Source of the DNA: Schmidtea nova
Taxonomy: Eukaryota
Reading direction: 5' to 3'
Assembly: GCA_044892505.1 (NCBI GenBank)
Contig: CM097882.1
Span: 182,900,001 to 182,964,000, forward strand
DNA length: 64,000 nucleotides
Positions 26,535 through 26,725 of the stretch are shown piece after piece. The notes under the pieces are model-generated. The model ran no database searches, had not been told where the DNA came from, and worked only from the letters and a program-made list of their open reading frames with translations. Numbering within the stretch: position 1 is the stretch's first letter; each line of letters opens with the position of its first letter. Made by a program: the position numbers and the translations under genes.

Positions 26535-26725
26535 GCGTAAGACCTTCTATCGGCAGCAAGGACCCGAGGGAAGATAAATGGGGAGTAGTTTTGGCAACAA
26601 AGCTCACCTGCCCATCATTTTTCCACCACCGTATGCATTACCAACTTGACTAGTAGGGAATAGGCAAGGGCATACGCGTGTAGTAGTCATGTTATGTATG
26701 GTTATGGGCGTGGAATCCCTAGTAT
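26535..26725 (+). ncRNA. Conserved structured cis-RNA element near the LTR 3' end
   Basis: Sequence block shared with 6075-6260 (minus); GCAA-tetraloop stem with compensatory changes; second hairpin with loop complementary to a downstream TCCCTA. Confidence 0.55.

Follow-up and report, generated by a model that had tools for sequence, protein, structure and literature searches.

Covarying RNA helices at the LTR 3' end of Burro-like giant gypsy elements and their possible part in tRNA-Pro primer handling

Known primer-handling structures and the host element

How a primer tRNA is chosen and activated beyond the primer binding site (PBS) has long been disputed, because HIV-1 and its relatives offer too little covariation. 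The accessible portions of the retroviral literature describe a U5/PBS region with a primer activation signal (PAS), an A-rich loop and a tRNA-like element in HIV-1, a U5/T-psi-C interaction in RSV and a predicted PAS for tRNA-Pro in HTLV-1 (PMC3185550, PMC11181671, PMC11251516). The excerpted text of PMC13191261 likewise describes PAS and anticodon contacts in the retroviral PBS segment. For LTR retrotransposons, the available excerpts report boxes and a 5' pseudoknot in Ty1 and a two-part PBS in Ty3 and Drosophila gypsy, where a short PBS is supplemented by contacts in gag or at the RNA 3' end (PMC11381356, PMC4974528, PMC1635307). The proteins and size of the giant gypsy elements of planarians (Burro/GYPSM1) have been described, with no LTR RNA structure in the accessible part of the account (PMC6431247).

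Here we analyse the final ~270 nt of the LTR in Burro-like gypsy elements (the domain), starting from a 64,000-nt stretch (the window) of a 1.25-Gb animal genome. Like the retroviral PBS segment in those excerpts, the domain would be a structure in U5 that stops at an 18-nt PBS and has words complementary to the primer T-arm and possibly the anticodon. Unlike that segment of roughly 100–125 nt, it has more than twice the length, is far more conserved, shows no sequence similarity to it and appears to keep its fold across families at ~61% identity. Its T-arm word lies ~245 nt upstream and is apparently single-stranded, whereas the PAS sits within a stem. As in the partial accounts of Ty1, Ty3 and gypsy, where 5' structure is needed for initiation, we propose that the primer is contacted outside the PBS; unlike in those elements, the PBS has a full length of 18 nt and is preceded by the domain, which lies inside the LTR.

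The window carries a 28.7-kb Burro-like giant gypsy element, identified by its multi-kb LTRs, an env-like domain before protease, RT, RNase H and integrase, and ankyrin and MATH/TRAF regions. The same domain set has been published for planarian Burro elements, and the env-like domain ahead of the protease is shared with Burro/GYPSM1, as far as the accessible text goes (PMC6431247). The element and the copies of the domain in the window are as follows.

23436-52123, plus strand: Burro-like giant gypsy element, flanked by the 4-bp target-site duplication CATG
23436..26802, plus strand: 5' LTR of this element, 99.4% identical to 48758-52123 (flanks read)
26285..26345, plus strand: AATAAA hexamers at 26285, 26335 and 26340, candidate poly(A) signals by sequence
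27155-27619, plus strand: RING ORF upstream of the main coding region (Pfam)
29315..46759, plus strand: internal coding region with Pfam matches to fusion-glycoprotein-like, protease, RT, RNase H, integrase, ankyrin and TRAF/MATH domains
51857..52049, plus strand: domain copy in the 3' LTR, with no PBS after it (CM score 161.5 bits)
6063..6256, minus strand: domain copy in the solo LTR of a second family (CM score 144.3 bits)
21347..21538, minus strand: fourth domain copy, of the far-diverged type F6 (CM score 64.4 bits, E 7e-13)

The second-family copy does lie within a solo LTR, as had been proposed; this LTR runs from 14908 down to 6025, bears a CTGG target-site duplication and is interrupted by a ~5.7-kb insertion. 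The insertion (6340-12025) has terminal inverted repeats of 210 nt and contains a 575-nt unit in head-to-head arrays. Two copies of a 2.4-kb element, 97.7% identical and in opposite orientation (16855-19218 and 52751-55122), match DUF4371 and a Spin-doc zinc finger and are probably a DNA transposon. A second gypsy-like element with protease, RT and integrase occupies 55800-60222, with no domain copy nearby. Within the 5' LTR, ORFs of 128–163 aa (24833-26243) have no Pfam match. No long purine tract precedes the 3' LTR in the window (48726-48757) or at loci L332 and L327-L328; at the same places, three families share a GC-rich block (GCGGGACGC...GGG-CCCC-GAG), which may serve as a plus-strand primer, a second tRNA contact or a dimer site.

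Copies of the domain and helices P1 to P5

Two sequences cannot reveal covariation, and the folds of single sequences did not stand out (z -1.24 and -1.00); we therefore gathered further copies. A genome search with the motif at the domain start returned 15,747 sites, against 9 for the control. Patterns designed to leave out both known families matched 411, 51, 146 and 22 times (0, 0, 7 and 1 with reversed controls), and a compensated-stem search for P1 yielded one more family. A sequence profile, built after removing five chance-looking seed rows, gave 284 hits over the collected loci. The 218 of these that were distinct and near full length fall into 45 clusters at 73% identity, many of them a single decayed copy. 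After a 90% redundancy filter, 115 copies with a mean identity of 61% remained, which together with the window copy form an alignment of 116.

Conservation is sharp at the 5' boundary of the domain. Twenty-one F6 copies that were selected solely by their PBS share 96% identity within the domain, 59–69% upstream of it and 76–77% downstream. The depth of four contig sets peaks over the domain, as expected for a sequence common to many families. None of the pattern hits in viral contigs (9 and 0) or metagenomes (16) was recognised by the model as a homologue (best E 0.48). At locus L142 the domain is partly duplicated in tandem. Locus L143:1158-1248 holds a mir-31-like hairpin that scores 45.6 bits, short of the Rfam gathering threshold of 51 bits, and may be a plain inverted repeat.

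The 116 copies were aligned blind to structure, and every column pair was scored against a null simulated on the tree. The upstream part of the domain contains four features.

26542..26554, plus strand: P1, a short hairpin whose 7-nt loop TTCTATC resembles a tRNA T-loop (pair 26543-26553, E=0.03 in the all-versus-all comparison)
26560..26566, plus strand: apparently single-stranded word G(A/G)ACCC(G), putatively PAS-like, complementary to nt 50-56 of the tRNA-Pro T-arm
26568..26624, plus strand: P2/P3, a long hairpin with covarying pairs 26578-26615, 26580-26613, 26581-26612 and 26590-26600
26627..26680, plus strand: P4/P5, a long hairpin found by RNAalifold unaided, 15/15 pairs with double changes

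Helices P1, P3, P4, P5 and P6 (the last described below) covary. The original prediction of a covarying RNA structure at the LTR 3' end is upheld by the larger alignment, in which 14 of the 18 top covarying pairs are nested helix pairs. Six pairs reached E<0.05, five of them in helices; the sixth (26619-26624) is canonical in 59% of copies and looks like an alignment shift. In a set of 80 copies, comprising three copies from the window and hand-chosen members of the 115 that span the clusters, 82.0% of cells pair, against 66.4% in shuffles and 36–40% with partners slid, and the covariation score was 0.474 against 0.218, far above chance. The number of pairs with any double change (28/35) did not exceed that in shuffles. 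Across 19 helix pairs G-U outnumber A-C (297 vs 91), and therefore the plus strand is the folded strand; the same counts disfavour a minus-strand Pol III box or tRNA relic. Taken from sequence comparison, these data point to a conserved, covarying RNA structure larger than first noted: helices P1, P4 and P6, the link to the PBS and the copy at 21347-21538 had not been part of the earlier description.

The P1 loop is strongly conserved (T26545 0.96, A26549 0.97). In P2/P3, a near-invariant internal loop (TA 26586-87 / TCAC 26604-07) holds the most invariant positions, A26606 (0.99) and A26587 (0.98), and is capped by a variable apical hairpin at 26588-26603. Lower P2 is a constrained-fold prediction with weaker support, one pair reaching E=0.06. 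P4/P5 was the only part that RNAalifold recovered without help; its 8-nt bulge (26637-44) ends in CCAA, a Pro codon plus A.

The apical hairpin is the one initially described. Its sequences, GTTTTG-GCAA-CAAAGC here and GTTCTA-GCAA-TAGAGC in 6063-6256 (minus strand), do differ by two double changes, and the ATGGG/CCCAT outer stem (26578-82/26611-15) contains three of the P2/P3 covarying pairs listed above. The proposed retention of a GCAA tetraloop did not extend to the wider set: the loop is GNRA in 62/116 copies and is mostly GNRA in 15/46 clusters, has 5 nt in 30 copies, and GCAA merely caps the stem. A dimer-initiation palindrome had also been suggested. The self-complementary hexamers ACGCGT (26674-79) and CTCGAG (6115-20) are present, but offset by one column rather than at the same position; the 6-nt slot is palindromic in only 2/116 copies and lies in the 3' strand of the covarying helix P4, which speaks against this role. 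An alternative GGCAG/CTGCC fold finds no backing, with GGCAG in 26/116 copies (6 clusters) and pairs that do not covary (p 0.11–0.98). The statement that no known ribozyme matches was borne out with Rfam models on the window copy and 8 diverged loci, where nothing came near a gathering score.

A pseudoknot between TAGGGA in the P5 loop (26654-59) and TCCCTA (26716-21) had been put forward as possible. Both words are in place, but the support is modest and confined to a subset of families. Clear covariation is absent from these columns in the plain alignment. When loop and tail were anchored (36/115 copies, 13 clusters), Watson-Crick flanks numbered 19.5 against 12.6 with swapped partners (P~0.014, an optimistic value as the three flanking offsets were picked after viewing the sequences). 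The pseudoknot is thus optional: 22/116 copies keep the tail but not the loop, and the loop is missing from F6.

Among other pairings considered, a CGG/CCG alternative to P1 shows no covariation (p~0.4), pairing of the P1 loop with the linker after P4 is not above shuffles (P=0.55), and pairing of the P1 loop with the tail is not general (P=0.17). Pairing of the P1 and P5 loops is above shuffles (4.23 vs 3.65), with both loops near invariant. A conserved uORF from TTTATG was rejected, as neither its frame nor its length is fixed.

Helix P6, the primer binding site and primer-matching words

The domain is closed by a helix that reaches past the LTR end towards the PBS.

26691..26806, plus strand: P6, a GU-rich tract after TTATG that pairs with the LTR end and spacer, a stem of the U5 inverted-repeat type
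26803..26808, plus strand: 6-nt spacer TAAATT between the LTR end and the PBS (TAAATT in 35/62 spacers)
26809..26826, plus strand: PBS for tRNA-Pro, complementary to the 3'-terminal 18 nt of tRNA-Pro(UGG) from this genome, with one mismatch here

P6 folds in 7/7 clusters that have a PBS-bearing copy and closes 0–3 nt before the PBS. Both anchors are present in 48/115 copies (18 clusters); there the energy of the cognate duplex is -11.0 kcal/mol, compared with -8.3 kcal/mol for halves exchanged between clusters, and 0/2000 swaps were as low. In the 5' copy of the window the pairing is weaker and is not the lowest-energy fold. Because the base of P6 uses spacer bases outside the LTR, its closed form is available only at the 5' LTR. 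The CCCTA tail (26716-22) lies in the P6 loop. A U5-IR stem-loop has reportedly been described for Tf1 by Lin and Levin in 1998, with a similar one in avian retroviruses. P6 resembles these stems in pairing an internal inverted repeat with the PBS-adjacent LTR end, but differs in enclosing up to ~100 nt, including the pseudoknot partner, and in using a spacer of at least 6 nt outside the LTR. The LTR-to-PBS spacer of retroviruses is usually 2 nt; here at least 6 nt separate the LTR-terminal CA from the PBS in all families, which raises a question for integrase end processing.

The domain accompanies the Pro PBS. Exact 17-nt Pro-PBS sites number 3,006 in the genome, and the domain is found at the same place in 30/30 of the first-listed loci, about two-thirds of which are of type F6. 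Conversely, all 60 recognised PBS-like sites behind 258 motif copies are Pro-like, and 2 further ones looked decayed. Locus L090 has four PBS-like sites spaced 72 nt apart. AATAAA peaks 100–125 nt upstream of P1 (14.0 cluster-weighted, against 0.2–5.2 in the other 27 bins), mostly in one related clade; in the window copy the hexamers lie 200–260 nt upstream. The peak suggests that the domain is in U5 and hence only at the RNA 5' end.

Between P1 and P2, G[AG][AG]CCC is found in 81/116 copies. In tRNA-Pro, the complement of GAACCC(G) is found in the 5' strand of the T-arm (nt 50-56). At the base facing U55, A is changed to G in 13/111 copies, which would keep a G-U pair, and conservation stops at the bases facing C56 and C50. 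Tested against shuffled tRNAs, the complementarity of GAACCC to tRNA-Pro does not reach significance (P 0.07–0.39 for 6–7-nt words, weaker for 5), and tRNA-Arg matches a conserved ACCTGC word equally well. In a constrained fold of the window copy, CCC(G) of the word pairs with the 3' end of the PBS; this pairing would likewise track primer type and offers an alternative reason for the word's conservation.

A second PBS type (975 sites), whose primer is probably tRNA-Trp, provides a comparison, though one that covers only two PBS types in non-homologous families. The 30 second-PBS loci fall into 11 clusters of LTRs without the domain, and the model found no copy there in the position and orientation of the Pro type; its two significant hits, both at L345, are on the opposite strand and downstream of the PBS. 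Within 300 nt of the PBS, G[AG][AG]CCC occurs at 28/30 Pro loci (4/4 clusters) and at 0/30 second-PBS loci (0/11 clusters; cluster-level Fisher P=0.0007). From the second PBS and the universal T-loop we predicted G[AG][AG]CAC, a word seen by eye before counting. It is present at 19/30 second-PBS loci (6/11 clusters) and 0/30 Pro loci, a difference not significant at cluster level (P=0.10). GGAGTC, at 28/30 second-PBS and 0/30 Pro loci, would fit the anticodon arm of the primer if this is tRNA-Trp; 29 viral-contig hits yielded no tRNA-Trp. The LTRs of the second-PBS families (L337-L366) are otherwise dissimilar, with GGAGTC and GA[AG]CAC mostly 40–140 nt before the PBS, and an end-of-LTR stem is present at 26/30 loci. 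Words and stem together would make a compact primer-specific signal.

A Pro counterpart of GGAGTC in the same register would begin CCAA. The P4/P5 bulge carries CCAA in 83/116 copies, F6 included, and it is the majority form in 26/46 clusters; the word is just 4 nt and is found at LTR ends too. CCT in the P3 loop was rejected as a Pro specifier, being missing from F6. So was pairing of CCCTAG with the tRNA D-loop, which is complementary in many copies: F6 has CCATAG, and the flanks follow the P5 loop rather than the tRNA.

Readings of the function

We lean, with a little better than even confidence, towards a domain that docks primer tRNA-Pro and controls the start of reverse transcription. 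AATAAA upstream of the domain and a closing helix that needs PBS-adjacent bases indicate primer handling rather than 3'-end formation. The domain would lie in U5 of the element's genomic RNA, where P6, whose pairing is seen in the swaps, would present the PBS at the foot of a helix. Before the tRNA arrives, the Pro word might be held in a weak pairing with the 3' end of the PBS, which suggests a strand swap. The tRNA 3' end would then anneal to the 18-nt PBS and open the T-arm, the freed strand (nt 50-56) would pair with GAACCC(G), and RT would start against the P6 helix. More speculatively, the UGG anticodon may be read by the CCAA bulge, and tRNA capture may be helped by the P1 loop, which resembles a T-loop, and by the anticodon-like loop of P5. 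T-arm pairing has been proposed for the primer activation signals of HIV-1 and RSV, and PAS and A-rich loop contacts set a precedent in the excerpts available (PMC3185550, PMC11181671), one of which also records that the PAS model is disputed even in HIV-1 (PMC3185550). Against docking count the second-PBS families, which prime without a large domain. The primer words, moreover, account for few of the ~50 conserved positions, and the TA/TCAC loop and P1 loop stand outside this explanation.

A stronger version, which we consider unlikely, is a T-box-like RNA that would select the folded tRNA-Pro at the anticodon (CCA-A), the elbow (P1) and the 3' end (PBS) and hand its T-arm to GAACCC. In bacterial T-boxes a purine follows the bulged codon, the tRNA 3' end is paired, and a loop E (AGUA/GAA) and two interdigitated T-loops are present. 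The bulged CCA-A, the hairpin with its T-loop-like loop and the PBS, which pairs with the tRNA 3' end, could be seen as resemblances, but there is no Rfam match, antiterminator or second T-loop; in the alignment no GAA stands opposite either AGUA, and only a single T-loop-like hairpin is found. If this version were true, the RNA alone would pick, package and activate its primer, and a riboswitch-grade fold for tRNA binding would be on record for the first time in a eukaryotic mobile element.

The domain could instead be mainly a packaging signal, with Gag or nucleocapsid binding the invariant internal loops and the primer words as small passengers. We regard this as doubtful, though a serious competitor. 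The domain's place at the RNA 5' end, its retention in elements without RT or integrase hits and the lack of a tRNA partner for the TA/TCAC loop all fit, as do Ty1 5' structures that bind Gag in the accessible part of PMC4974528; yet a conserved dimer palindrome is absent (2/116 copies, as above) and the PBS fixes the domain boundary through P6. Moreover, packaging signals usually diverge quickly between families. Conservation over 45 clusters with unalignable LTRs is also what a fixed host partner would give, and the LTR-internal ORFs would impede scanning, so that a platform for nuclear export or cap-independent translation (CTE- or IRES-like) of a very long unspliced RNA might be imagined. 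This seems quite improbable to us, given a conserved ATG that is paired in P6 and opens ORFs of 1–59 codons (tail frames 16/13/15), a first long ORF lying 300–530 nt beyond the PBS, where one was found, and no Rfam IRES or CTE match in the window copy and 8 diverged loci.

In retrozyme LTRs, hammerheads set the RNA ends, and a new self-cleaving or branching ribozyme in the domain could do likewise. Many invariant loop and bulge nucleotides, the sharp 5' boundary and the pseudoknot of some families agree with this idea, but we think it very unlikely: no Rfam ribozyme matches, the abundant F6 type lacks the pseudoknot, and cleavage in U5 would separate the R region from the PBS-bearing RNA. Least credible to us is a role in suppressing 5'-LTR polyadenylation, in which P6 would mask GU-rich downstream elements. 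The AATAAA peak lies upstream of the domain, and the GU-rich tract is fully paired only where the spacer follows, that is, in the 5' LTR; however, the tract is ~250–400 nt away from the AATAAA sites, and neither P1–P5 conservation nor the primer-tracking word would be explained. These functions can overlap, as they do in the HIV-1 PBS segment.

The domain belongs to no Rfam family, is not a kissing-loop dimer site and, by the features tested, is not a T-box. On sequence evidence the fold is unusually well supported and is best filed as an undescribed, much enlarged relative of U5/PBS primer-handling structures. No published description was found in the literature covered; the Burro discovery paper lay outside that scope and may bear on novelty. 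Dozens of diverged families provide a phylogenetically supported structure together with a natural comparison of two primer types, and PAS-type contacts become directly testable with a short RNA. The domain is apparently the first defined cis-acting RNA element for Burro-like giants, with >15,000 sites, and a sensitive marker of their LTRs, including families without pol.

One F6 and one F3 element that we inspected keep the domain and have no RT or integrase-core hits. In these F6 (L326-L328) and F3 (L331-L332) elements, the polyprotein joins the ankyrin region directly near residue ~2770, and parts of the Burro-like ORFs are retained; they are likely abundant non-autonomous derivatives. The F6 element has LTRs of >4.4 kb that are 99.9% identical. 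Finally, tRNA genes stand in long tandem arrays at loci L199-L248, where those for tRNA-Pro(UGG) (1,106 pattern matches) repeat every 308 nt and those for tRNA-Lys(UUU) and tRNA-Arg(UCG) form arrays as well.
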